Source: Acidobacteriota bacterium
GTDB lineage: Bacteria > Acidobacteriota > Aminicenantia > UBA2199
NCBI GenBank assembly: GCA_018897435.1
Contig: JAHIKI010000049.1
Coordinates: 1 to 60,036, forward strand
Direction of reading: 5' to 3'
DNA: 60,036 bases
The notes under the pieces were generated by a model. That model worked only from the letters and a program-made list of their open reading frames with translations, searched no databases and was not told the DNA's origin. Of the stretch, positions 26,265 to 60,036 are shown piece by piece; within the stretch, counting starts at the first letter, position 1; each line of letters opens with the position of its first letter. A program made the translations under genes and the position numbers.

Positions 26265-27602
26265 ATGAAGAAAATACTGATTGTTGACGACGAAAAGAAC
26301 ATCCAGGTTTCGCTGGCCACAGTGCTCGAAGATGAAGGTTACCAGGTCTATTTCGCCAAGGATGGAAAAGAAGGGATCGAAAAATTCAAGAACATCAAGC
26401 CCGACGCGATCTTTCTGGATATCTGGATGCCCGGCATGGATGGTCTGGAGGTCATCAACCGCATCCTGGCTATCGATCCGCTGCAGATCATCATCATGAT
26501 CTCCGGGCATGGTTCGGTGTCGGCGGCGGTTTCGGCCCTGAAGGCCGGCGCCTACGATTTTCTGGAAAAGCCGCTCAGTTTGGACAAGGTGATCTTCGTG
26601 CTTAAGCGCGGCCTGGAATTCCGTCAGGTCCGCGACGAGAACATCAAGCTGAAGACCATACTCGACCAGGAAGACGAATTGGCCGGCAACGATGAAAAAA
26701 AGAGGCTGCTGCGCGAAAGCACGGCCACCCTTGATTTTGAAGCCGCCGACCCGCAGTATCTCCGTAAGCAGCGCACCGTGGCCCTGAGCAATATCATCTA
26801 CGGCATCGGCCTGCATTCGGGCGAGAAAACCGGTATGGTCATCAAGCCTCTGCCGCCGAACAAGGGCATCCGTTTTGAAAACATATCCAAAAAAAACTAC
26901 ATTCCTGCCCGTATCGAATACCTCAATACTACCGGCTACGCTACTTCGATCAAGAAAGACGATCTGGAAGCCCGGACCATCGAACATCTCCTGGCCGTGC
27001 TGCACGCTTTCGGCATCACCAACCTGGCCGTCAAGATCAACAAGGAAGTCCCCATTGATGACGGTTCGGCCATCAATTTCTGCGATTTCATCAAGGAGTG
27101 CGGCATTGTCGACCAGGCCGAAGAAATTCCCGAGATCGTCATTACCCGGCCCCTGCTCATTGGCGAGGAGACCCACGACGGGAAATTCATCAAGATCGAG
27201 CCGGCCGATGTCTTTTCGGTCCGTTATACCTGCATTTACCCCGAACCTCTGGGCCGCCAGAGTTATGAATTCGTCATGCATTCGAGCGAAGATTTTCAGC
27301 GCGAGATCGCCCCGGCCCGCACCTACGGTTTCGTGGACGATTTCAACAAGCTCAGCGACATGGGGCTGGCTGAAGGCGGCCGCATGAACAATTTTATACT
27401 GATCGACAGGGACAGGATCATCAACACCACCCTGCGTTTCCCCGAAGAATTGGCCCGCCACAAGATCCTGGACATCATCGGTGATTTTTACATGTTGGGC
27501 CGGCCGATCCGCGGCAAGATCACCGCCCAGAAAACCGGACATACCGACAACGCCAAGATGGTCAACATGGTCAAGGACACGTTCCTGAAGACCAAGTCCT
27601 AA
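26265..27602 (+). CDS. lpxC: response-regulator receiver domain fused to UDP-3-O-acyl-GlcNAc deacetylase (LpxC)
   Basis: The N-terminal REC has VDDE, IFLDIWMPGMDG, MISGH and EKP. The C-terminal 280 aa are LpxC with GLHSGEK, TIEHLLA (E78/H79), HKILDIIGD (H238/D242/D246) and KTGHTDN (H265). Confidence 0.85.
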   Translation: MKKILIVDDEKNIQVSLATVLEDEGYQVYFAKDGKEGIEKFKNIKPDAIFLDIWMPGMDGLEVINRILAIDPLQIIIMISGHGSVSAAVSALKAGAYDFLEKPLSLDKVIFVLKRGLEFRQVRDENIKLKTILDQEDELAGNDEKKRLLRESTATLDFEAADPQYLRKQRTVALSNIIYGIGLHSGEKTGMVIKPLPPNKGIRFENISKKNYIPARIEYLNTTGYATSIKKDDLEARTIEHLLAVLHAFGITNLAVKINKEVPIDDGSAINFCDFIKECGIVDQAEEIPEIVITRPLLIGEETHDGKFIKIEPADVFSVRYTCIYPEPLGRQSYEFVMHSSEDFQREIAPARTYGFVDDFNKLSDMGLAEGGRMNNFILIDRDRIINTTLRFPEELARHKILDIIGDFYMLGRPIRGKITAQKTGHTDNAKMVNMVKDTFLKTKS

Positions 27603-27933
27603 AGGCAAAAGTAAAAAGGCAAAAGTTAGGAAAAGAGGCACTTTTAAGAATTATTCAATTCCAATTGATTTGGTTTTTTAACCCCCTTTATTAAGGGGGG
27701 TGGCGCAGCCGGGGGGATCCGGATTTTGATGAAATATTTCTTTATGACGATATTTAGATCCCCCCTGTTTCCCCCCTTCGGTAAGGGGGGAGTGAAATGG
27801 GGAATGTATTGATTTTCTGTATAATATTCGCCGTAAGCCGTTCGCGGATTTCTATTCTTAAATTTTTACTTTTGCCTTTTGCCTTTGTCTTTCTCTTCCC
27901 CGTCACGCGTTACGTAGTTTTGTCACTTCCGAC
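27599..27933. repeat. heptad-periodic hairpin element E3 (AAAGGCA type) with a structured insert in its loop
   Basis: Left arm AAAGGCA AAAGTAA AAAGGCA AAAGTTA GGAAAAG starts on the lpxC stop codon. Right arm TTTTTACTTTTGCCTTTTGCCTTTGTCTTTCTC lies at about 27862-27896. The tail GTCACGCGTTACG..TTGTCAC lies in the nth 3' end. Confidence 0.8.
27680..27791. other. G6/C6-run stem-loop cluster inside the E3 loop
   Basis: Hairpin CCCCCTTTATTAAGGGGGG (27682-27700). A perfect 9-bp inverted repeat GGGGGGATC (27711-27719) / GATCCCCCC (27757-27765). Hairpin CCCCCCTTCGGTAAGGGGGG (27771-27790). Confidence 0.6.
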
Positions 27934-33184: not shown

Positions 33185-33520
33185 CGGTATAAGGTTTACG
33201 GTAGACGGTTTACGGTAAGAAAAGGCAAAGCACCAAGCTCCAAGCACCAAATAACAACTAAATTCCAAGCTCCAAATTCCAATGTCCTAAACAAAGAAGT
33301 GAATGGGTAGAAGGGTTAATGAGTTGAAGGGTTAAGAAAACCGAAATCGTTTGCTGTCATTGCCGTTGTCCCATCAACTCATCAACATTTGATTGCTCTC
33401 TTTGTTTTGGTCATTTGGATATTGGAATTTTGTGCTTGTTTTTGATTTGATGCTTGGGATATGGAATTTTTCTTTAGTTAACCGTCAAACGTACACCGTC
33501 AACCGTCTGCCGAGCTCGTT
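33185..33520. repeat. compound hairpin element E5: three heptad-periodic hairpins nested in one another
   Basis: Outer arms are GGTTTAC GGTAGAC GGTTTAC GG (33196-33218) and CCGTCAAACGTACACCGTCAACCGTC. Middle arms are CCAAGCT/CCAAATT type (33226-33296 and 33397-33468). Inner arms are GGGTAGA AGGGTTA ATGAGTT GAAGGGT (33306-33336) and CCCATCAACTCATCAAC. It ends with GAGCTCG. Confidence 0.8.
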
Positions 33521-39795: not shown

Positions 39796-39817
39796 CGATT
39801 TCTAAGAGGTGAGCCTG

Positions 39818-40027
39818 ATGAAAAATAATAAAAAATGTCCGAAATGTGACTCCAGTGCCCTCGGCCGCAAGCGCGGTTCCCCGGTGCTCAACAGCTGGAG
39901 CCGAATCTCCGTAAACCTGACCAGCCTCGATGTTTGGGTGACCCGCTTCGTCTGTACCGAATGCGGCTTTATAGAGGAATGGATCGAGAATCCGAACGAC
40001 CTGAAGAGGTTCAAGACCCAGGAGTAG
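39818..40027 (+). CDS. small zinc-ribbon protein
   Basis: 69 aa with CPKC...CTEC pairs, preceded by an SD and a promoter. An alternative GTG start lies at 39809. Confidence 0.5.
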   Translation: MKNNKKCPKCDSSALGRKRGSPVLNSWSRISVNLTSLDVWVTRFVCTECGFIEEWIENPNDLKRFKTQE

Positions 40028-46869: not shown

Positions 46870-48915
46870 ATGCTAAAAAAGCTTCACAAACTCAACCTGG
46901 CCATTATCCTGTCGGCAGTAGCCGCCATTCTGGCTTACTTCTTTTTTCAGCCTGGCACTTTCCAGTTCTTCCTGTTGCTGACCATAATTCTCGCCTTTGT
47001 CCGCCTGCTGGGCATCATCCGCCGCCGCCTGCTCTGGAAGATCCGCAACCGGCTGATCATCTCTTCGCTGTTTTTCATCGTCACCCCCATCGTACTGATC
47101 ACGGTCTTTTTCTACCTGATCATCAACCTCATCATCACCCAGTACAACACGGCCATCTTCGAAAACCTGATGGTCAACGAGATCCGCTCCTTTGAAGAAA
47201 GCAGCGGCTATTACCTCGGCCTAGCCGACGATGTAAGGATCAAGCTCGAGGTGCAGCGTTTCAAAAACCGCAAGCCGCGTTTCCTGAACCTGGCTTTTTT
47301 CAAGGAGACGGACGGGCGCTACCAGGCGTTTTTTACCTATCCCGGGGACTTGCCCCTCGAGACATTCGATGCCAACGGCCCGCTGGCCAAGTTCCAAGCC
47401 GGCTATTTCAAGGTTGGCGGCGTTCTCTATCACGGCGTACATCAGCAGCGCGGCGGCTACGCGGCGCTGATTTTCGAGACCCTGAACCAGGAGTTTTTCG
47501 ACGCCATGCCGCCCATCGGCGACTTCAAGGTGCTGTTCATGGGTGCAGGCGGCAATACGCTCTCCGCCTCCTCGCAGGAGATGTCGGAGCGCCTCAACGA
47601 CAAGGATTTCGTCGGTTTCGAAAAATACCATTTCCCTTTTCCCTTCACCTTCCGCTTCTGGGATTTCGATGATCTGAAGAACGGGCAGCCCACCCTCAAG
47701 TTCAACATGTTCCTGCTGATCAACGACTATTCGAAGATCATGCAGAAACTGAAAACCTCTGACCGCGCCGCCATGCTGCAGGACCAGGCAAAGGTACTGG
47801 AAAAGGAGATCAGCCGCGGCGGCGACCAGGCTGCGCTCATGAGCAAAAGCCAGCAGTTGGACGAATTGAAAAAAGAACTTCAGGTGCTGCAAAAACGCGA
47901 CAGCCAGAGCTCGGTCTTTCCCATCTCGGTGCTGGTGCGTTTCATGCTCGGCCTGTTCGGCTTTTTCATTGTTATCTCCTTTTTCATCGGCTTGCGCATG
48001 GTGCGCGTCATCACCCGCGCCGTCAACGAGCTGACCAAGGGCACCGAAAAGATCCGCCGCGGTGATTTTTCCTACCGCATCCGCATCAAGTCGCAAGAGC
48101 AGATGCATTTCCTGGCCGAATCGTTCAATGACATGGCCTCCGGCATCGGCCGCCTGCTGAGCGAGGAAAAGGAAAAGCAGCGCTTGCAAGAGGAGCTGCG
48201 CATCGCCCGCGGTATCCAGCTGAAGCTGCTGCCCGCCGACCATTTCGCATGCCCGGAGTTTAACATCGCCGCGGTCAACATCCCGGCCACGGAGATCGCC
48301 GGCGATTATTTCGATTACTTTCACCGCCCCGGTAAATTCCTTTCGGTCCTGGTGGCCGACGTCTCGGGCAAGGGTGCCCAGGCTGCATTCTACATGGCCG
48401 AGCTGAAGGGCATCATGAACTGCCTGCAGAAGACCGGCCAGGAGCCGGCGGCCATCCTCAGCGAATGCAACGTCATCCTGCAGAGTTCTTTTGAGAAGGT
48501 CACCTTCATCACCATCAACCTGGTCCGTTTTGACCTGCAGAACAAGAACCTGATCTTTTCCCGGTCCGGCCACACGCCGGCCCTGTTTTACCAGAGCGAC
48601 AAGCAGGCCTGCCTGGAGCTGTCGCCGCACGGCATGGCCCTGGGGCTGAACAATTTCAGCCAGGAGGGCATCGAAGAGCTGCGTCTGCCATATCAAAGAG
48701 GCGATATCCTGTTCTTCTTTTCCGACGGTCTTTCCGAGATCATGAACCAGGAAGAGCAAATACTGGGCGTCGCCGAGTTGAAAAACATGCTGGTCGGCTA
48801 CGCCGCCCTTTCGGCGCTGGAGATCAAGGAGAAGATCCTGGCCCGGGCCATCGCTTTCGCCGCCGGCCAGGCCAACGCCGACGACCTGACCTTCGTGGTG
48901 ATGAAGGTTCGTTGA
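46870..48915 (+). CDS. membrane-bound PP2C-type phosphatase (HAMP + SpoIIE domains)
   Basis: N-terminal TM helices, a large extracytoplasmic region and a HAMP domain (LRMVRVITRAVNELTKGTEKIRRGD). The SpoIIE/PP2C domain has GDYFDY, DVSGKG and DGLSE. Confidence 0.85.
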   Translation: MLKKLHKLNLAIILSAVAAILAYFFFQPGTFQFFLLLTIILAFVRLLGIIRRRLLWKIRNRLIISSLFFIVTPIVLITVFFYLIINLIITQYNTAIFENLMVNEIRSFEESSGYYLGLADDVRIKLEVQRFKNRKPRFLNLAFFKETDGRYQAFFTYPGDLPLETFDANGPLAKFQAGYFKVGGVLYHGVHQQRGGYAALIFETLNQEFFDAMPPIGDFKVLFMGAGGNTLSASSQEMSERLNDKDFVGFEKYHFPFPFTFRFWDFDDLKNGQPTLKFNMFLLINDYSKIMQKLKTSDRAAMLQDQAKVLEKEISRGGDQAALMSKSQQLDELKKELQVLQKRDSQSSVFPISVLVRFMLGLFGFFIVISFFIGLRMVRVITRAVNELTKGTEKIRRGDFSYRIRIKSQEQMHFLAESFNDMASGIGRLLSEEKEKQRLQEELRIARGIQLKLLPADHFACPEFNIAAVNIPATEIAGDYFDYFHRPGKFLSVLVADVSGKGAQAAFYMAELKGIMNCLQKTGQEPAAILSECNVILQSSFEKVTFITINLVRFDLQNKNLIFSRSGHTPALFYQSDKQACLELSPHGMALGLNNFSQEGIEELRLPYQRGDILFFFSDGLSEIMNQEEQILGVAELKNMLVGYAALSALEIKEKILARAIAFAAGQANADDLTFVVMKVR

Positions 48916-49652
48916 TGGAAGAACTGGAAAAAAAACTGGGCTATCGTTTTAAGGATCGTGATCTGCTGCGCTCCGCTCTGACCCACAAATCGTTCAACGA
49001 AGGCGGCAAGAACCACGGCCTCGACAACGAGCGGCTGGAGTTCCTGGGCGATTCGGTTATCGGCCTGGTCATCACCGACTACCTGTACCGGCGCTGCCGG
49101 GACAACCGCGAGGGCGATCTGGCCAAGCTGCGCGCCCACCTGGTTTCGAGCAACCTGCTGTTCAAAGTGGCCAAGACCATCGGTTTGGGCGGCCACATCC
49201 TGCTCGGTCGCGGCGAGGAAAAGAACCAGGGCCGGCGCAATAGCAAGATCGTCTCCTCGTGCTTCGAAGGCCTGATCGGCGCCCTTTACCTGGATTCCGA
49301 CTTCGCTACCGCAACCGCGGTCATTGTCGAACGCTTCCGTGAATTCCTGGAGCAGCTGCTCAACAGCGAAATGCGCATCAACGACTACAAATCGGAGCTG
49401 CAGGAACTGATCCAGAAACACAAGAACATCCTGCCCGTTTACAAGGTGACGGCCGAGATCGGCAAGCCGCCCGACATGACGTTCCGTGTGGCCGTGTACC
49501 TGGAAAACAGCGAGATCGGCAGCGGTAGCGGCCGCAACCGCCGCGAAGCCGAGCAGGAAGCGGCATTGATCGCCCTGAAGAACATCGGCAATTTCATGAA
49601 TTTCGAAAAGCTGTCGGAAACGTTCTTCGCCGAAAAGCCCAAAGGCTCGTAG
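48912..49652 (+). CDS. rnc: ribonuclease III
   Basis: Signature NERLEFLGDSV, plus a C-terminal dsRBD (YKSELQELIQK...GSGSGRNRREAEQEAA). Confidence 0.95.
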   Translation: MMEELEKKLGYRFKDRDLLRSALTHKSFNEGGKNHGLDNERLEFLGDSVIGLVITDYLYRRCRDNREGDLAKLRAHLVSSNLLFKVAKTIGLGGHILLGRGEEKNQGRRNSKIVSSCFEGLIGALYLDSDFATATAVIVERFREFLEQLLNSEMRINDYKSELQELIQKHKNILPVYKVTAEIGKPPDMTFRVAVYLENSEIGSGSGRNRREAEQEAALIALKNIGNFMNFEKLSETFFAEKPKGS

Positions 49653-49750
49653 GAGCTCAGTGATTAGTAATTAGTGATGAGTGATTAGTTAAGAAATTAA
49701 ACGGAATTTACTGACTCTTTCTCTTTCCAGTCACTAATCATTTATTAAAG
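49653..49750. repeat. heptad-periodic hairpin element E10 (GTGATTA type)
   Basis: GAGCTC is followed by AGTGATT AGTAATT AGTGATG AGTGATT AGTTAAG AAA. The right arm TCTTTCTCTTTCCAGTCACTAATCA is short. Confidence 0.75.
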
Positions 49751-49811: not shown

Positions 49812-50033
49812 ATGGCAACGAAGAAAGTAGTAAAAAAAGTGAAAAAAGCCGTGAAGCCGGTCTTGAAAAAGAAAGTGAACCCCGTGCTCAAGAAAAAAGC
49901 CAAACCTGTGGCCAAGAAAATCGAACGCTACGCCTGCGGGGTCTGCGGCCTAGTGGTGGCGGTGGACCAGGCCTGCGGCTGCGCTCATGTCCACAGGCTG
50001 ATTTGCTGCGCTAAGGTTATGAAGAAGAAATAA
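49812..50033 (+). CDS. Lys-rich tail fused to a desulforedoxin-like Cys4 domain
   Basis: The N-terminal 37 aa are about 45 percent Lys (KKVVKKVKKAVKPVLKKK). The C-terminus YACGVCGLVVAVD...LICCAKVM parallels desulforedoxin YKCELCGQVVKV...LVCCGEDM. Confidence 0.6.
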   Translation: MATKKVVKKVKKAVKPVLKKKVNPVLKKKAKPVAKKIERYACGVCGLVVAVDQACGCAHVHRLICCAKVMKKK

Positions 50034-50205: not shown

Positions 50206-50233
50206 AATAATTTCATCTATGGAGGCACCAACA

Positions 50234-50557
50234 ATGACTTATACTCACGCTGAACTAAAGAAAAAAACCGTAGCCGAACTGCGCGAGATCGCCAAAGGGA
50301 TCGAGCATGAAGCGGTGCAGGGGTACTCGCAGTTGAACAAGGAGCACCTCCTGGTCGCGCTATGTAAAGCATTGAACATCGATATGCACGAGCACCGCCA
50401 GGTGGTGGGACTGAACAAGGCCCAAGTCAAGACCAACATCCGCCACATCAAGGAAAAGCTCGCCGCGGCCATCGCCGCCCACGATCGCAAGCAGATCAAG
50501 TTCTGCCACCGCCAGATCCACAAACAAAAAAGGCAGATACACAAAGCCATGGTTTAG
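50234..50557 (+). CDS. small basic protein with Rho-N/SAP-like N-terminal motif
   Basis: 107 aa. LKKKTVAELREIAKGI resembles the Rho termination factor N-terminal helix-extended-helix. GGAGG lies 8 nt upstream of the ATG. Confidence 0.5.
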   Translation: MTYTHAELKKKTVAELREIAKGIEHEAVQGYSQLNKEHLLVALCKALNIDMHEHRQVVGLNKAQVKTNIRHIKEKLAAAIAAHDRKQIKFCHRQIHKQKRQIHKAMV

Positions 50558-50566
50558 AAGCGCGAA

Positions 50567-50785
50567 CGATTGTAATTAGTAATGAGTAATGAGTGATAAG
50601 TGATGAGTGATGAGTGATGAGAAACCGCTTTAAAACGAAATATCAACAAGATTCTTTTTCTTTCTCATTACTCATCACTAAAGATCGTTGATTTCGTTCA
50701 CTCATCACTATAGTTCGTAAGGTCTTCTTTCTCATCACTCATCACTGAAGATCGCTGAGTTCGTTCACTCATCACTGATCTGCGA
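50567..50785. repeat. heptad-periodic hairpin element E12 (GTGATGA type, right module duplicated)
   Basis: The left arm has 8 heptads, GTAATTA..GTGATGA GTGATGA GAAAC. The right module TTCTTTCTCAT(T)ACTCATCACT(A/G)AAGATCG(T/C)TGA(T/G)TTCGTTCACTCATCACT occurs twice in tandem. Confidence 0.85.
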
Positions 50786-51573: not shown

Positions 51574-51730
51574 ATTCGTGATGAGTAATAAGTGATAAGT
51601 GATGAGCAGCGGCCAAGGATCGATCGAATGTAGTAACTCGCCACTTATCATGAAATTTCGATAACTTCAATTCATTGTTCACGTTAGATCGTTTATTATT
51701 CTTTCTCATTACTCATCACTCATCACGTAG
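51574..51730. repeat. heptad-periodic hairpin element E13 (GTGATGA type, long loop)
   Basis: Left arm is CGTGATG AGTAATA AGTGATA AGTGATG AG. The loop is about 88 nt. Right arm is ATTCTTTCTCATTACTCATCACTCATCACG. Confidence 0.8.
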
Positions 51731-51743
51731 TTTCTGCTTGCTT

Positions 51744-52919: not shown

Positions 52920-53054
52920 GGGAAGAGAGAGGGAAGAATTAGGGAAGAAAAAGGGAAGAGAGAGTAAGAAAGAAGAAGTTAATTGAAATTTTATCTTATT
53001 CTTACTTTGTCTTCCCTCATTTTTCCTTCTGCATTTCCCTCCTTCTTCCCTAAG
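52917..53054. repeat. heptad-periodic hairpin element E14a (GGGAAGA type), complete hairpin upstream of a 4HB gene
   Basis: Left arm GGGAAGA GAGAGGG AAGAATT AGGGAAG AAAAAGG GAAGAGA GAGTAAG AAAGAAG starts on the GNAT stop codon. Right arm is CTTACTTTGTCTTCCCTCATTTTTCCTTCTGCATTTCCCTCCTTCTTCCCTAAGG. Confidence 0.85.
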
Positions 53055-53065
53055 GAAAGGTTTCT

Positions 53066-53455
53066 ATGAATTGGAGAGATTTGCAAGTTTGGAAAAAGTC
53101 ACATTTATTGACCAAGCAAATTTATCAAATTACAAGGGGTTTTCCGAAAGAAGAAAGGTATGGATTGACCTCACAGATTCAAAGAGCTGCCTATTCTGTT
53201 CCACTCAATATCGTTGAAGGGCATAGCAGGAAAACTGCAAGGGAGTTTTTGCAGTATTTAAATATTGCACGTGGTTCCTTAGAAGAGTTACGGTATTTAT
53301 TGATGCTTGGATGTGAAATAGATTACATTTCGATTCCTGACAGGGAGAATTTGGAGAGTGCGGCCGCTGAGGTCTGTATCATGCTCGATGCCTTGATCAA
53401 ATCCTTGCAAAGAGGGAAAGCAAATCGAAGGAAAGTAGAGATATCGAAAAGTTAA
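53066..53455 (+). CDS. four-helix-bundle protein (23S rRNA intervening-sequence protein / Avd family), copy 1
   Basis: Family motifs L.VW, FPKEERYGLTSQIQRAAYSVPLNIVEG, EF..YL.IARGSLEEL. 129 aa. Confidence 0.9.
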   Translation: MNWRDLQVWKKSHLLTKQIYQITRGFPKEERYGLTSQIQRAAYSVPLNIVEGHSRKTAREFLQYLNIARGSLEELRYLLMLGCEIDYISIPDRENLESAAAEVCIMLDALIKSLQRGKANRRKVEISKS

Positions 53456-53810: not shown

Positions 53811-54033
53811 AGCTTGGCAGTGGATTTCTCCCTTTTTCAGCATGATTTTTGTAAAAGGTGTGTAAAATGACGAAAATTGGCTATTGCATTGACAATCCCG
53901 GTTGGGTATGTTATTGAAATAAGTGTTTTTTGGAGGTTGCAAAGGGACTATACTCATTTTGAACACCATCTTACCTCCAACCGCTTTTTCGCCTGCCTCG
54001 CTGGAAGCCCGCAAGGGTCAGCGGCGGCAGCTT

Positions 54034-54114
54034 AGTTTGAAGAAAGTAATTAGTTAAGAAAATAAAATGCTACGAAGAAAGTGATTAGTGATTAGTGATG
54101 AGTGATTAGAAAAG
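54034..54114. repeat. E15a: AGTAATT-type arm plus GTGATTA-type left arm upstream of 4HB copy 2
   Basis: AGTTTGAAGAAAGTAATTAGTTAAGAAAA is followed by AGTGATT AGTGATT AGTGATG AGTGATT AGAAAAG (54080-54114). Confidence 0.8.
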
Positions 54115-54115
54115 A

Positions 54116-54568
54116 ATAAACCGATCAATAATGATACAAGGCCACCGAGATCTGAATGTTTGGAAAAGAAGTATGGAACTGGTTGAGGATCTCTATCAAT
54201 GTACTAAGGACTTTCCGAAAGAGGAAATTTATTCCCTGACTTCCCAAATTCGCCGTTCTGTCGTTTCGATACCCAGTAATATTGCTGAAGGAGCTGCCCG
54301 AAATTCAAAAAAGGAATTTATCCAGTTTCTCCACATTGCCCTCGGGTCCACCTCAGAACTTGAAACTCAATTGATCATCTCGGGTCGACTGGGATATCTG
54401 AAAGAAACTTCTGGGCATCTGAACAAATTGGATGAAATCAAAAAAATGCTGCTGGGCCTCTTGTCATTTGTCAAAAAGAACAAATAAAAAATTGTCATAT
54501 GCATTTTCTCTTCACTCAGCACTCTTTCTCATCACTAATCACTCATCACGCATCACTTATAACCGATC
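54116..54568 (+). mobile_element. candidate insertion cassette (4HB gene plus one right arm) bounded by the direct repeat ATAA(A)CCGATC inside a hairpin loop
   Basis: ATAAACCGATC lies at 54116-54126 and ATAACCGATC at 54559-54568. Removing the interval leaves a canonical left arm-loop-right arm element. Confidence 0.35.
54131..54487 (+). CDS. four-helix-bundle protein (23S rRNA IVS protein / Avd family), copy 2
   Basis: DLNVWKRS, FPKEEIYSLTSQIRRSVVSIPSNIAEGAAR, EFIQFLHIALGSTSELETQL. 118 aa. Confidence 0.9.
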   Translation: MIQGHRDLNVWKRSMELVEDLYQCTKDFPKEEIYSLTSQIRRSVVSIPSNIAEGAARNSKKEFIQFLHIALGSTSELETQLIISGRLGYLKETSGHLNKLDEIKKMLLGLLSFVKKNK

Positions 54569-54620
54569 GAGGACTTATGTATTTTCTCATCACTCATCAC
54601 TCATCACTTATCACTTATAA
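54504..54620. repeat. E15b: two GTGATGA-type right arms downstream of 4HB copy 2
   Basis: CTTTCTCATCACTAATCACTCATCACGCATCACTT, then the linker ATAACCGATCGAGGACTTATGT, then ATTTTCTCATCACTCATCACTCATCACTTATCACTTATAAT. Confidence 0.85.
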
Positions 54621-54632
54621 TGGAGTGCACTA

Positions 54633-56261
54633 ATGTCCAAACTAATCTCGACCTCCCCCAACGGTACCGAATACTCGCTGCCGCAACCCTCAGACTACGA
54701 CCGCGAGTTTCAGCGTGTGAAAGCGCTGGTCGACGAATCTCGTGCCAAAGGCATGGAAATCGTAATAGTCCTGGGCGTGGGTTTCGTCGGCGCCGTCATG
54801 GCCGCCATTGTTGCCGATGTAACGGACAAGAAGGGCAAACCGACGAAATTCGTCATCGGCGTGCAGCGTCCCTCTACGCGCAGCTTCTGGAAGATCCCCA
54901 CCTTGAACCGGGGCATCTCGCCGGTCAAGGCCGAGGACCCCGAGGTCGACCCGCTGATCCGCCGCACCGTGCTGGAGAAGAAGACTCTGCTGGCCACCTA
55001 CAACGACGAGGTCCTCACCCTGGCCGACGTGGTGGTGGTCGACGTCCAGCTCGATTTCCAGAAAAGCGAGCTGGGCAACTGCCGCACGGGTGAGGTAGAG
55101 ATGGCCGCCCTGGAAGAGTCGTTCGAGACCATCGCCAGACGCGTGCCGGCTGAGTGCCTGGTGCTGATCGAAACCACGGTGGCGCCCGGCACGACCGAAC
55201 AAATAGCCCTGCCCGTCATGCGCAAGATCTTCCGCCAGCGCGGCATCCAATCCGACCCGCTGCTGGCCCACTCCTACGAGCGCGTCATGCCCGGCCGTCA
55301 GTACGTGGCCTCGATCCGCGACTTCTGGCGCGTCTGCAGCGGCGTCAGCCCCGAGGCCCGCGCCCGCGTGGAAAAGTTCCTCAACGAAGTCATTCATACC
55401 GACGAATTTCCCCTGACCGTGCTCGACCGCCCCATCGAGTCTGAGACGGCCAAGATCGTGGAAAACTCCTACCGCGCCACCATCCTGGCCTTCCTGGACG
55501 AATGGTCGCTCTTTGCCGAGCGCAACGGCGTGGACATCGGCAAGGTCATCAAGGCCATCAAGGTGCGGCCGACCCACAGCAACATGATCTTCCCCGGCCC
55601 GGGCATCGGAGGTTACTGCCTGCCCAAGGACGGCGGCCTGGGCGTCTGGGCCTATAAACATGTTTTCGGCTTCGAGGACGACATTTTCAAGATCACGCCC
55701 CGGGCCATCGACATCAACGATACCCGCGCCTTGCACGCCGCCCAATTGGTGCGCGACGCCCTGCGCAACATGAGCATCCCCGTGGCCGGCGCCGAAGTCC
55801 TGGTCTGCGGCGCTTCCTATCGCGAGGACGTCGGGGACACCCGCTATTCCGGCTCAGAAGTATTGGTGCGCCGCCTTTCTGAAATAGGAGCCGAGATCCG
55901 CGTCCACGACCCCTATGTCGAGCGTTGGTGGGAGTTCGAAAAACAGGACGAGTATCCTGTGCAAGGCAAGGAGAAATTCTTCCGCAACCAAAAGAAACTC
56001 AAATCTCTGCAGGTGCAGAAGGACCTGGCCAAGGCTCTTCCCGGCTGCGACGCCCTGGTGCTCGCCGTCCGCCACGAAGAATATCTCGATTTAGTGCCCG
56101 CTGATATCGTCAAGCTCGCGGGAAAGCCTATTGCTGTTATTGATTGCTTCCTGATCTTAAGCGACGAAAAGATCAAGGAATACCTTGCCCTTGGCTGCGA
56201 GGTCAAAGGGCTGGGTAGGGGACATATAAAGAGATTGAAAGAGGAGTTGAAGAATAAATAG
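54633..56261 (+). CDS. nucleotide-sugar dehydrogenase (UDP-glucose/GDP-mannose dehydrogenase family, WbpA/WecC-like, long form)
   Basis: Rossmann GVGFVGAVMA, catalytic Cys region GGYCLPKD and a C-terminal UDP-binding domain. It is 542 aa with N- and C-terminal extensions. Confidence 0.85.
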   Translation: MSKLISTSPNGTEYSLPQPSDYDREFQRVKALVDESRAKGMEIVIVLGVGFVGAVMAAIVADVTDKKGKPTKFVIGVQRPSTRSFWKIPTLNRGISPVKAEDPEVDPLIRRTVLEKKTLLATYNDEVLTLADVVVVDVQLDFQKSELGNCRTGEVEMAALEESFETIARRVPAECLVLIETTVAPGTTEQIALPVMRKIFRQRGIQSDPLLAHSYERVMPGRQYVASIRDFWRVCSGVSPEARARVEKFLNEVIHTDEFPLTVLDRPIESETAKIVENSYRATILAFLDEWSLFAERNGVDIGKVIKAIKVRPTHSNMIFPGPGIGGYCLPKDGGLGVWAYKHVFGFEDDIFKITPRAIDINDTRALHAAQLVRDALRNMSIPVAGAEVLVCGASYREDVGDTRYSGSEVLVRRLSEIGAEIRVHDPYVERWWEFEKQDEYPVQGKEKFFRNQKKLKSLQVQKDLAKALPGCDALVLAVRHEEYLDLVPADIVKLAGKPIAVIDCFLILSDEKIKEYLALGCEVKGLGRGHIKRLKEELKNK

Positions 56262-56393: not shown

Positions 56394-56663
56394 ATGCACA
56401 ATCCTGAAATAACCAAATTCATCCACGAACACAGCCAGTATTTCTGGTATACCCCGGAGACTGAAAAGGAAAACATCAGCCCGGAATTGCTGCTGGAAAC
56501 CATATTGAATGATGGCGACATGGATGCCGTTCGCGAACTTTTCAAGGTCATGGGCATAAAAAACGCGGCCAGCGTGTTTTTCAGTGCTGCCGGCAGAAAA
56601 AAAATGAATTACTATCCCGAAATTTATCATTTCTTTTCACTGCTTTTCAAACGCCATGCATAA
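56394..56663 (+). CDS. small protein, putative partner (antitoxin?) of the downstream nucleotidyltransferase
   Basis: 89 aa. It overlaps the downstream AbiEii-like gene by 8 nt and has its own consensus promoter. I recognise no family. Confidence 0.5.
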   Translation: MHNPEITKFIHEHSQYFWYTPETEKENISPELLLETILNDGDMDAVRELFKVMGIKNAASVFFSAAGRKKMNYYPEIYHFFSLLFKRHA

Positions 56664-57270
56664 GGAAATCCTCAACACCGATCAGCTTGAGCTACTGGCG
56701 CTGGTGAGGAATTTTAAGCCCGAATTTTTCCTGGTGGGCGGCACGGCCATAGCCCTTCATATCGGTCACCGCCGTTCCAATGATTTCGATCTTTTTAAAA
56801 ACGGCGAATTGCGCCACAAAAAAATACTCGATACCGTAAAAACACACGGATTTCCGGTTCAGGTCACCCGCCGGGTAAGCGAACAGTTGAACCTGACAAT
56901 TAGTGGAGTGAAATTCACGTTTTTCGATTATCCTTTTCCCATAAAACCTGTTTGCGTGTTTGAAAACGTGATCGAACTTCCCGATATTTTGACTTTGGCG
57001 GCGATGAAGGCCTATGCTTTGAGCCGGCGTTCCAAGTGGAAGGATTACGTCGATCTGTATTTTATCATCAGGCACCATCATTCAATCGCAGAGATTTCCG
57101 CCAAAGCCGGCGCTATTTTCGGCGAACTTTTCTCGGAAAAAATGTTCCGGGCCCAATTGAGCTTTTTCGAAGACATCGACTTTACCGAGCCTTTGGAATA
57201 TTTGCCGCCCGCTGTTCCGGAAACTGTAATAAGGGAGTTCCTTGTCGAAAGGGCCACGGCGGTGATTTAG
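56656..57270 (+). CDS. nucleotidyltransferase, AbiEii/AbiGii toxin family (type IV TA-like)
   Basis: 204 aa. GGTAIALHIGHRRSNDFDLF matches the family's G-G-T-A...R.S.D.D nucleotidyltransferase core. Confidence 0.7.
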   Translation: MHKEILNTDQLELLALVRNFKPEFFLVGGTAIALHIGHRRSNDFDLFKNGELRHKKILDTVKTHGFPVQVTRRVSEQLNLTISGVKFTFFDYPFPIKPVCVFENVIELPDILTLAAMKAYALSRRSKWKDYVDLYFIIRHHHSIAEISAKAGAIFGELFSEKMFRAQLSFFEDIDFTEPLEYLPPAVPETVIREFLVERATAVI

Positions 57271-57302
57271 CCGGGATGAAAAGTAATTGAGAGAAAAAGT
57301 TA

Positions 57303-57491
57303 ATGCGCAATTCAAAACTAATTGCTAAAAAAAAAGAAAGGGAGATCCTGAAGTTGAGCAGGCTGACGCCGGAGGAACGGCTGAAAGAACAGGTAAAACT
57401 TAATGTCCGCATCAAAGAACTATTCTTTGCCGGCTTGAGCAGCAAGGGATTTTCCCGGACTGAGATCATCCGCTTGTGGAAGACAAAATGA
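57303..57491 (+). CDS. small basic protein, putative partner of the downstream nucleotidyltransferase
   Basis: 62 aa. Its stop overlaps the ATG at 57488 (ATGA). Confidence 0.4.
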   Translation: MRNSKLIAKKKEREILKLSRLTPEERLKEQVKLNVRIKELFFAGLSSKGFSRTEIIRLWKTK

Positions 57492-58024
57492 ACAAAACCA
57501 ATTTAGCGAAGATACTCAAGGCCTTTCACCTACTGAAGATCCCCTTTGCCTTGGCCGGCGGCCATGCTGTCGCGGCCTGGGGAGTTGTGCGCGCCACCCG
57601 GGATATCGACTTCCTGGCCGATGCCGCAGGCGAGCTGGCGGCCAAACTGGTCCTTGAGTTGAAAAAAGCCGGTTTTAGCCTCGTTTTCCGTAAGGGTGAC
57701 GAAGCAGATCCTCTGCGGGGAGTGATCCATGTGGAAATGAAAGGTTCTGCTGACGATGAGCTTGTGGACATCGTCCTGGGCATCCGGAACATGCCTCAGG
57801 GTATTTTCGAGCGATCTCTTGCGCTTGATTTTCTAGGCCTTGAGATCCCCACCGTTGCTCCCGAAGACATGATTATTCTCAAGTGCCTGGCCGGCGGTCC
57901 AATCGACCTGGAGGATGCGCGATCAATCCTTTTCATAATGAAGAAGCGTCTGGACATGAAATACTTAGAGCGAGAGTTGAAGCGCTGCCGGATTTCGCTG
58001 CAAAAGCTGGAACAAGGAAGATGA
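57488..58024 (+). CDS. nucleotidyltransferase-fold protein (MNT/DUF6036-like)
   Basis: FALAGGHAVAAWGVVRATRDIDFL is a minimal nucleotidyltransferase motif. An alternative start lies at 57476. Confidence 0.6.
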   Translation: MNKTNLAKILKAFHLLKIPFALAGGHAVAAWGVVRATRDIDFLADAAGELAAKLVLELKKAGFSLVFRKGDEADPLRGVIHVEMKGSADDELVDIVLGIRNMPQGIFERSLALDFLGLEIPTVAPEDMIILKCLAGGPIDLEDARSILFIMKKRLDMKYLERELKRCRISLQKLEQGR

Positions 58025-59309: not shown

Positions 59310-59672
59310 ATGATCGAACAAGTAAAAACCCACAAAGACCTAGACGTTTGGAAATTAGGTCTGGCATTTGTAAAAGATATCTATGTGGCTACCAAGAAAT
59401 TTCCACCTGAAGAAATGTATGGATTGACTTCGCAATTACGACGAGCAGCAGTTTCCGTCCCTACAAATATTGCCGAAGGTGCTGCAAAAAATACGAGGAA
59501 AGATTTCGTCAAATTTTTATATATCTCTTTGGGATCTCTCGCAGAGATCGAGACTTTACTATATATTTCTGAGTCGCTTAATTATTGTGAAATATCTTCA
59601 TTGATGGATTCAAGCACTCGAATTAGAATGAAGTTATTGAATTTGATTAAGTATCAAAAAAGTAAAATATGA
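59310..59672 (+). CDS. four-helix-bundle protein (23S rRNA IVS protein / Avd family), copy 3
   Basis: DLDVWKLG, FPPEEMYGLTSQLRRAAVSVPTNIAEGAAK, DFVKFLYISLGSLAEIETLL. 120 aa. Confidence 0.9.
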   Translation: MIEQVKTHKDLDVWKLGLAFVKDIYVATKKFPPEEMYGLTSQLRRAAVSVPTNIAEGAAKNTRKDFVKFLYISLGSLAEIETLLYISESLNYCEISSLMDSSTRIRMKLLNLIKYQKSKI

Positions 59673-60036
59673 AAATGAGTAAACGAGTTGACGAGTATAC
59701 GGGAAGACGAGAAAATGAGTAAACGAGTATACGAGAAGACGAGAAAATGAGTAAACGAGTATACGAGAAGACGAGAAAATGAGTAAACGAGTAGACGAGT
59801 ATACGGGTAAACGGGAAGCAGCAAAAGTTCGATCTATTGCGGTTTTCTCTTCCCTCGTCCACCCTTCCACTCGTACACCCGTTTACAAGCAAGCGTTTTC
59901 TCTTCCCTCGTCCACCCTTCCACTCGTACACCCGTTTACAAGCAAGCGGTTTCTCTTCCCTCGTCCACCCTTCCACTCGTACACCCGTTTACAAGCAAGC
60001 GGTTTCTCTTCCCTCGTCCACCCTTCCACTCGTACA
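59671..60036. repeat. hairpin element E18 with tandemly amplified arms, truncated by the window end
   Basis: The left side has about 4 tandem units of GAAAATGAGTAAACGAGTATACGAGAAGACGA (32-nt period in the middle copies). The loop CAGCAAAAGTTCGATCTATTGCGG is near-identical to the E17 loop. The right side repeats a 53-bp unit TTCTCTTCCCTCGTCCACCCTTCCACTCGTACACCCGTTTACAAGCAAGCG(G)T starting at 59845, 59898, 59951 and 60004. Confidence 0.85.

Follow-up and report, generated by a model that had tools for sequence, protein, structure and literature searches.

A four-helix-bundle gene within a tandem-heptamer hairpin in the leader of an Acidobacteriota nucleotide-sugar dehydrogenase gene, and the nature of its short direct repeat

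E15 is a hairpin element that encloses a gene for a small four-helix-bundle (4HB) protein, in a 60,036-nt stretch of DNA from an Acidobacteriota bacterium of the Aminicenantia (contig JAHIKI010000049.1 of assembly GCA_018897435.1; the whole stretch is referred to here as the window). It is best read as a cassette of the intervening-sequence (IVS) type, in which a 4HB gene (PF05635, 'S23p'/Avd-like) is closed off by a stem of about 35 bp built of tandem heptamers. The cassette occupies the 5' leader of a nucleotide-sugar dehydrogenase gene, where it lies between an ops-like leader motif and the ribosome-binding site (RBS). A preliminary description had drawn attention to a direct repeat of 10-11 bp on the two sides of the 4HB gene, and had compared it to a target-site duplication (TSD) left by insertion of the 4HB gene and one right arm into an empty hairpin. 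This comparison finds no support in the repeats at other cassettes, in the alleles of relatives, or in the distribution of the motif. We favour instead, with middling confidence, a composite origin, whereby the repeat results from a conserved motif, the end of an arm, and the pairing of a palindrome, in an element whose arm units are prone to slip, and is not the footprint of an insertion.

The layout of E15 is L - 4HB - R0 R1 - R2 (Table 1). The order of parts proposed earlier (left arm, motif, 4HB, right arm, motif, right arm) holds, with the correction that the right-arm copies number three, not two. L and R2 form an inverted repeat of 35 nt that is 91% complementary (54079-54113 versus 54582-54616), R1 and R2 are copies of a 38-nt repeat with 92% identity, and R0 proper spans 54504-54524, within a TATGCA+R0 block that is conserved in the related allele L087. 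Both strings of the direct repeat are present exactly where they had been placed, and they match at 10 of 11 positions. The left copy does lie just after an arm, three bases past the end of L, but the right copy does not, as it overlaps R1 by 4 nt. It opens with ATAA (54559-54562), the four bases that close the 38-nt arm repeat; they count as arm sequence because R1 and R2 both end in CACTTATAA, as does the single right arm of the related alleles L085/L175. The right copy is made up of these 4 nt of the R1 end and of 6 nt (CCGATC) of the spacer between two arms, and only CCGATC is unique to the 'repeat'.

The left copy, for its part, appears to be a conserved post-arm loop motif of the element family, present inside ordinary elements. 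Related motifs are found by the arms of elements that lack a 4HB gene, i.e., in the reverse complement of 51670-51706 (AAAGAATAATAAACGATC, P 0.025), in element E1, and in the related alleles L168 (AAAAGCCAATAAACC) and L167 (AATAAACGAAC), the last two of which can be written as CAATAAAC(C/G)A. The motif is present as well in L170 (AAAATAATTGACGATCAA), a site with neither hairpin nor 4HB gene, and the pattern AATA[AG]N0-3YGA was observed 11 times in the elements, compared to 3.4 +/- 1.9 expected. A module consisting of an arm and this motif recurs in the window at 51670-51732, with substitutions and an indel. It is also true, as had been pointed out, that the loop obtained by removing the cassette, AAAAGAATAA(A)CCGATCGAGG, resembles ordinary loops, for instance that of E1 (AAAAAACAATAGATCGAGC) or the armless site of L170 (GAGAAAAATAATTGACGATCAAATCG).

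The match between the two copies is marginally above chance, with P values of 0.002-0.1 depending on the search space; it is suggestive and not compelling, since the repeat was singled out after inspection of about 16 elements. Unweighted local-alignment shuffles gave P values of about 0.10 with short flanks and 0.23 with flanks of 120-145 nt, and scoring in which matches were weighted by the rarity of the base gave 0.002-0.005 with short flanks and about 0.1 with wide ones. The exact 10-mer of the repeat has no further occurrence in the window. The possibility that AACCGATC is a recurrent core at cassette borders was ruled out by its chance-level frequency in 735 kb of related loci, where it never lies at an arm border. 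An enrichment of GATC in the elements was likewise considered and rejected (16 observed versus 11.8 expected), the whole window being rich in this tetranucleotide, with 501 sites in 60 kb or about twice the expectation for a random sequence.

The core shared by both copies, CGATCG, is palindromic. Identity and complementarity therefore coincide, and both copies pair in the predicted L:R2 stem: in the minimum free energy fold, R2 is the partner of L, and their helix is prolonged by AGAAAA:UUUUCU, AUAA:UUAU, and CGAUC:GAUCG. Such pairing, by prolonging the stem, may help to keep the copies alike. The additional right arms would have arisen as arm units were duplicated and deleted, through slippage during replication or unequal recombination within the tandem-repeat arms. 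Gain and loss of arm units indeed appear to be rampant in the element family. A motif of the C(T)TAATG type, resembling the region of the downstream gene that spans its RBS and start, precedes every right arm in the relatives, and the window spacer, ending in GAGGACTTATGTA, matches this pre-arm pattern.

Comparison of the same site in relatives is informative in this regard. Alleles were collected by using the dehydrogenase as an anchor, and 12 distinct ones were compared over the spacer that runs from the leader end, GGCGG(C/T)AGCTTAG, to the RBS; distant dehydrogenase homologues (about 70% identity) were uninformative, synteny being absent. The 12 alleles show five states: bare, hairpin without 4HB gene, and three types of 4HB gene (A, B, and C) with private arm repeats. 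Bare sites measure 10 nt (L178), 29 nt with a mini-stem and the remnant of an arm (L176), or 31 nt composed of an A-run, AATAATTGACGATCAAAT, and a T-run (L170). The hairpin without 4HB gene, in L167, has CGTGACG arms and a 170-nt loop that contains a decayed AGTGATG element. Type A, with AGTGATK-like arms, is that of the window (three right arms), and is also found in L085/L175 (one right arm, flanking gene 92-95% identical), in L086, with which L169 is identical in sequence (two right arms, 91%), and, as judged by its arms, in L087 (three right arms, 89%), whose contig starts just upstream of R0, its 4HB gene not being seen. Type B, the product of which shares 57% amino acid identity with that of E15, has CGTGATT arms and is present in L171/L172 (flanking gene 96% identical) and in L088 (87%, four right arms). 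Type C, with GGCGTAA arms, is present in L173/L174 (94%) and, as a pseudogene with two left arms, in L168 (92%). Overall, the number of arms among these orthologous alleles varies from 0 to 4 on the right and from 0 to 2 on the left.

The idea of gain and loss at this site was thus well founded, as its content has really been gained, lost, or exchanged among relatives. To judge from these alleles, the unit of gain and loss is the whole hairpin with its private arms, rather than a 4HB gene and a single arm added to a hairpin already in place, since bare alleles have no arms at all. L171/L172, which have the most similar dehydrogenase (flanking-gene dS 0.25), carry another 4HB type, other arms, and a divergent leader, and their high similarity to the window starts at the start of the dehydrogenase gene, which suggests a recombination breakpoint at the right border of the cassette. 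Since both flanks are conserved, homologous recombination would suffice to explain the interleaved distribution of the alleles. A strictly vertical history of the 4HB gene at this site was dropped after type B and C cassettes had been found in the closest relatives.

A comparable repeat is present in none of the 12 alleles, and the searches around other cassettes gave P values of 0.39 for L086, 0.90 for L088, and 0.34 for L171; as for E14 and E16, the two other 4HB cassettes of the window, the repeats on their flanks are not short but as long as an arm or a whole element. L175 and L086 share the type A gene with the window, but their left motifs have diverged (CAATAACGGGA and GGCGATAATT, respectively) and neither has the right copy; the 10/11 match is therefore younger than the residence of the gene at the site. 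In L087, which is collinear with the window over R0-R1-spacer-R2, the stretch equivalent to the right copy is ATCACTGAGC, and the two align without gaps.

Several points weigh against a composite origin. The narrower search space makes the match unlikely by chance (P 0.002-0.005, see above), and homology between short AT-rich motifs can be assigned only loosely. The fold of the whole 611 nt is no better than that of shuffled sequences (z -1.3), the pairing that extends the stem being a prediction. In addition, the CCGATC of the spacer is without counterpart in L087, L086, and L085. Lastly, the repeat is followed by a second collinear block, TATGYA and an arm (TATGCA+R0 versus TATGTA+R2, 24 of 27 positions, or 89% for the D4 repeat), which hints at a real common descent of two units.

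This last point also speaks for a live rival, which we hold to be doubtful. Of the two origins first envisaged, insertion with a TSD or a recombination scar, the former lacks support and the latter could still apply in the form of a duplication followed by a deletion. According to this scenario, a unit consisting of the post-arm motif, the 4HB gene, the pre-arm motif, and a right arm was tandemly duplicated, the copies being joined through 4 nt of microhomology, ATAA (left, GA-ATAA-ACCGATC; right, CACTT-ATAA), and the second 4HB gene was then deleted, leaving the motif (10 nt), GAGGACT, TATGTA, and R2. The repeat would then reflect true paralogy, produced by slippage or illegitimate recombination with no need for a transposase. 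Consistent with this, the right copy begins exactly at the end of the arm, with ATAA in common, and analogous relics elsewhere show that units of 4HB gene and arm can be duplicated whole and afterwards lost in part: in E14, a relic of the 3' end of the 4HB gene (GAAGAAGTTAAT, 52971-52982, versus GAAAAGTTAAT, P 0.04) lies in the loop ahead of the extra right arm R1, and in L016, from a betaproteobacterium, AACTAA and an arm are found on both sides of the gene. The near-identical arrays of right-arm units furthermore indicate that duplications are ongoing. However, at least two events are needed, the duplication and one or two deletions, and L087 has R0-R1-spacer-R2 but no right copy, so that the identity of the copies would have been kept since before the split from L087 for no obvious reason, or L087 would have been homogenised later. 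The divergence of the left motif in L175 and L086 is a further difficulty. A possible relic of the deleted 4HB gene, AGGACTT, which occurs in the spacer and also in the open reading frame (ORF; 54207-54213), has by our own estimate a chance probability of about 15% and was not used as evidence.

Insertion as such is improbable. It would imply that a segment or circle composed of the 4HB gene and a right arm integrated in the loop of an empty hairpin, the repeat being either a TSD of 10-11 bp or a recombination core (CGATCG); the junction of such a circle would read CACTTATAA directly followed by ACCGATCAATAATG. A loop like ordinary ones does return when 54127-54568 is deleted, and hairpins nested in the loops of other hairpins exist, three deep in the window (33185-33507) and in L167. 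At least three unrelated cassette types, in addition to bare states, are found among relatives whose flanking genes are 87-96% identical. The closest of them, L171, differs in both 4HB gene and arms, and cassettes have therefore been exchanged on short time scales; such exchange of alleles is nonetheless explicable by homologous recombination in the conserved flanks. On the other hand, the empty allele predicted by the insertion has no exact match in metagenome contigs and is absent from all 12 distinct alleles, the real empty ones being without any arms (L170, L176, and L178) or with other arms (L167). The repeat lies within the hairpin rather than outside the inverted repeats, and 4 of its 10 bases belong to an arm. 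Comparable repeats are lacking in L086, L088, L171, E14, and E16, AACCGATC does not recur at the borders of other cassettes, and the order in E14, arm and then gene, is incompatible with a single fixed integration site. The gene is moreover older than the repeat.

Mobility genes were also looked for. The cassette encodes the 4HB protein only, and no transposase, integrase, or reverse transcriptase was found in it or in the window ORFs scanned, about 40 in number, to which this search was confined. An identical 4HB protein is encoded at the E15 locus only; lookups of identical dehydrogenase and 4HB proteins led back to the one strain and the one allele, in short-read contigs that end inside the right arm. 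Insertion at the apex of an intergenic hairpin with a short duplication has a precedent in IS1397 and ISKpn1, which insert in the loops of repetitive extragenic palindromic (REP) sequences and bacterial interspersed mosaic elements (BIMEs) and duplicate 3-4 bp of target. These insertion sequences (ISs) have a transposase, terminal inverted repeats of their own, and a duplication outside the element, none of which E15 has. Integron cassettes offer a second comparison: a small ORF without promoter accompanies an imperfect hairpin and is expressed by host transcription, at a site whose content varies between strains. In contrast to these, E15 has no integrase or attI, its hairpin encloses the ORF instead of following it, and no conserved core was found. 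It follows that E15 does not belong to elements of the IS or miniature inverted-repeat transposable element type, nor to integron cassettes, for want of their defining features. A bolder version, in which 4HB-in-hairpin cassettes would be a widespread, self-propagating, IVS-like class that colonises hairpin loops and mRNA leaders, and not rRNA alone, with recombination at the palindromic loop core (CGATCG) and with the E15 repeat as the first visible footprint of integration, seems to us improbable; if true, it would point to the means by which 23S IVSs spread, and to a part taken in it by the 4HB protein.

Coming back to the composite origin, the hairpin may also explain how a gene is accommodated at such a position. 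We infer that the cassette is co-transcribed with the host operon. A self-closing stem would then rejoin the leader and the RBS, and would perhaps be excised, making the insert tolerable in a leader, or in an RNA that is structured or regulatory. By analogy with IVSs, stems of this length would be cut by RNase III, encoded by rnc in the same genome. rnc is itself directly followed by a hairpin of the AGTGATT type (49659-49745).

Table 1. Features of E15 and of related loci in the window (positions refer to the window).
Feature	Position	Strand	Details
RNase III gene rnc	48912-49652	+	Ribonuclease_3 and dsrm domains
Paralogous 4HB cassette E14, [L (AGGGAAGAAAG)n][loop][R1] 4HB [R2]	53066-53455	+	D3: 57 nt at 77%
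Conserved promoter-like site TTGACA-17-TATTGA	53889-53917	+	Kept in 10 related loci
5' leader of about 110 nt, ending in ops/JUMPStart-like GGCGGCAGCTTAG (54023-54035)	to 54035	+	Bounds the variable site on the left
Degenerate upstream copy of left arm and post-arm motif (GAAGAAAGTAATTAGTTAAGAAAATAAAATGCTAC)	54039-54073	+	D7: 54039-54054 versus 54074-54089, 94%
Left arm L: heptamers (AGTGATK)n in tandem, with terminal AGAAAA	54079-54113	+	Period 7, 4.3 copies at 54080-54109
Left repeat copy ATAAACCGATC, instance of post-arm loop motif AAAAG-AATAAAC-CGATC	54116-54126	+	
4HB gene, 118 aa	54131-54487	+	PF05635, E 6e-40
Pre-arm motif TATGCA and degenerate right arm R0 (TTTTCTCTTCACTCAGCACTC)	54498-54524	+	D4: 89% to 54576-54602
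Right arm R1: (MATCACT)n with terminal CACTTATAA	54525-54562	+	95% complementary to 54081-54102
Right repeat copy ATAACCGATC	54559-54568	+	End of R1 and CCGATC of spacer
Inter-arm spacer CCGATCGAGGACTTATGTA	54563-54581	+	3' part like pre-arm/RBS-start motif
Right arm R2, predicted partner of L	54582-54620	+	Abuts RBS GGAG (54622-54625) of downstream gene
Nucleotide-sugar (UDP-GlcNAc/UDP-glucose type) dehydrogenase gene	54633-56261	+	Right boundary of the variable site
Paralogous 4HB cassette E16, between two complete hairpin elements	59310-59672	+	

Upstream of the cassette, the promoter-like site and the leader were seen in the window and in L086, L088, L167, L168, L170, L171, L173, L175, L176, and L178; in the relatives, the site reads TTGACA-17-TATTGA or TATTCA and the leader ends as indicated above, while the content downstream varies among these 10 related loci. 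The first part of the degenerate arm-and-motif copy at 54039-54073 is orthologous to the armless site of L170. The leader end resembles the ops/JUMPStart motif of polysaccharide operons, whose E. coli consensus is GGCGGTAGnnTG. A scan for consensus promoters did not call the site at 53889-53917, the second hexamer of which ends in A, and a promoter/terminator scan of the region returned nothing useful. Likewise, a quick RNAalifold analysis of the leader gave no consensus structure, and Rfam, at gathering and E-value thresholds, gave no family for the hairpins or the leader.

The 4HB protein matches PF05635 (6.2e-40) and TIGR02436 (8.9e-39), the family of 23S rRNA-intervening-sequence proteins, as well as the structure PDB 2GSC (4.6e-27). 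Compared to its orthologues in L175 and L086, it shows 83-84% amino acid identity, a dN of 0.09-0.10, a saturated dS, and a dN/dS well below 1; the gene is intact and under purifying selection. A PADLOC search with the three 4HB proteins of the window gave no match. Matches to the Avd proteins of diversity-generating retroelements (DGRs), which belong to a homologous four-helix-bundle fold family (PMC10053308), are weak (Pfam bAvd, 1.3e-5, 26 versus a cut-off of 40 bits; NCBIfam DivGenRetAVD, 1.4e-6, 28.6 versus a cut-off of 80 bits). With scores so far below the cut-offs and no reverse transcriptase among the window ORFs, template and variable repeats not having been looked for, E15 does not belong to the DGR Avd group. 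A survey of 78 PF05635 loci from many phyla showed that 50 have flanking inverted repeats (z of at least 5). When such loci were inspected by eye, the arms were seen to be locus-specific tandem 7-9-mers, and a minority showed the same duplications of arms.

The remainder of the window is ordinary chromosome, with genes for ABC transporters, type IV pili, transketolase, uvrA, POR, holB, rnc, and others, and the closest named homologue of the dehydrogenase is labelled Candidatus Aminicenantes. The intergenic spacers of the window abound in hairpins with arms built of short tandem repeats (such as AGTGATK, GGGTAGAC, AGGGAAGAAAG, AAATTCC, and CGGTAKA), and three of these hairpins hold a 4HB gene, each with a different layout and a different arm repeat. 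The hairpin downstream of E16 has at least 3.7 right-arm units of 53 nt that are 99% identical; this array (59839-60036), which contains no 4HB gene and runs past the end of the window, shows that an arm unit has been amplified in tandem very recently. Another element lacking a 4HB gene (50670-50776) has a right-arm array of 3.3 copies. The three hairpins nested loop-in-loop at 33185-33507 have arms of CGGTAKA, AAATTCC/AAGCACC, and GGGTTGAA, respectively, and the nesting in L167 is similar. A further hairpin (27601-27886) has arms of the AAAGGCAAAAG type and a 214-nt loop with C5-6/G6 palindromes (AACCCCCTTTATTAAGGGGGG ... CCCCCCTTCGGTAAGGGGGG). Small ORFs bracketed by hairpins, which encode a zinc-ribbon-like protein (39809-40027), a Lys/Cys-rich protein (49812-50033), and a 112-aa protein with a Rho_N domain (50219-50557), indicate that genes besides 4HB may sit between such hairpins. 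Downstream of the dehydrogenase gene, at 56394-58024, two toxin-like modules of the AbiEii/DUF6036 nucleotidyltransferase type, each with a small upstream ORF, separate it from a GFO_IDH_MocA oxidoreductase gene; these two genes are adjacent in L170 and L176, and this region is a second variable insertion site.

Hairpin-forming tandem heptamers are not without parallel. The heptameric short tandemly repeated repetitive (STRR) sequences of cyanobacteria, and the small dispersed repeats nested in one another there, resemble the elements described here in their intergenic location, hairpin potential, and nesting (as at 33185-33507). They belong to another phylum, and we know of no association of STRR sequences with 4HB genes.

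The closest known counterparts of E15 are the 23S rRNA IVSs with an S23p ORF of Coxiella burnetii, Leptospira, and others. In Coxiella, the S23p ORF is enclosed by a 28-bp terminal stem that is cut by RNase III, and tandem GACAGAT heptamers, whose number varies between strains, are present at the 5' end (PMC4990558). E15 likewise has a protein of the same family in its loop, long terminal inverted repeats around the ORF, and heptamers at its ends in variable copy number (0-4 right arms); RNase III is encoded in the same genome and may, by analogy, cleave it. In contrast to these IVSs, it is not located in helix 25 or 45 of 23S rRNA, the window containing no rRNA gene; it occupies the 5' leader of a protein-coding operon, with sister elements in other intergenic spacers, and it is on location only that membership in the 23S IVSs fails. 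Other differences are that its arms consist wholly of locus-specific tandem repeats and are multiplied (three right arms), and that many 'empty' hairpins of the same build, without 4HB gene, exist in the same genome. Literature searches brought up no account of PF05635 genes carried, outside rRNA, in hairpins of tandem repeats. E15 is an IVS-like 4HB cassette outside rRNA.

The origin and spread of S23p/4HB intervening sequences have been in question since the early 1990s; their origin is unknown and their mobility has been suspected or proposed, never shown (PMC4990558). The short repeat of E15 is probably not the key to their mechanism; it points to a tractable locus, and the element family is of more interest than the repeat itself. 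The window and its relatives show that the gene-in-hairpin design exists outside rRNA, in many phyla, and a leader site with at least five allelic states provides a natural series for studying the gain, the loss, and the growth of arms of these elements.

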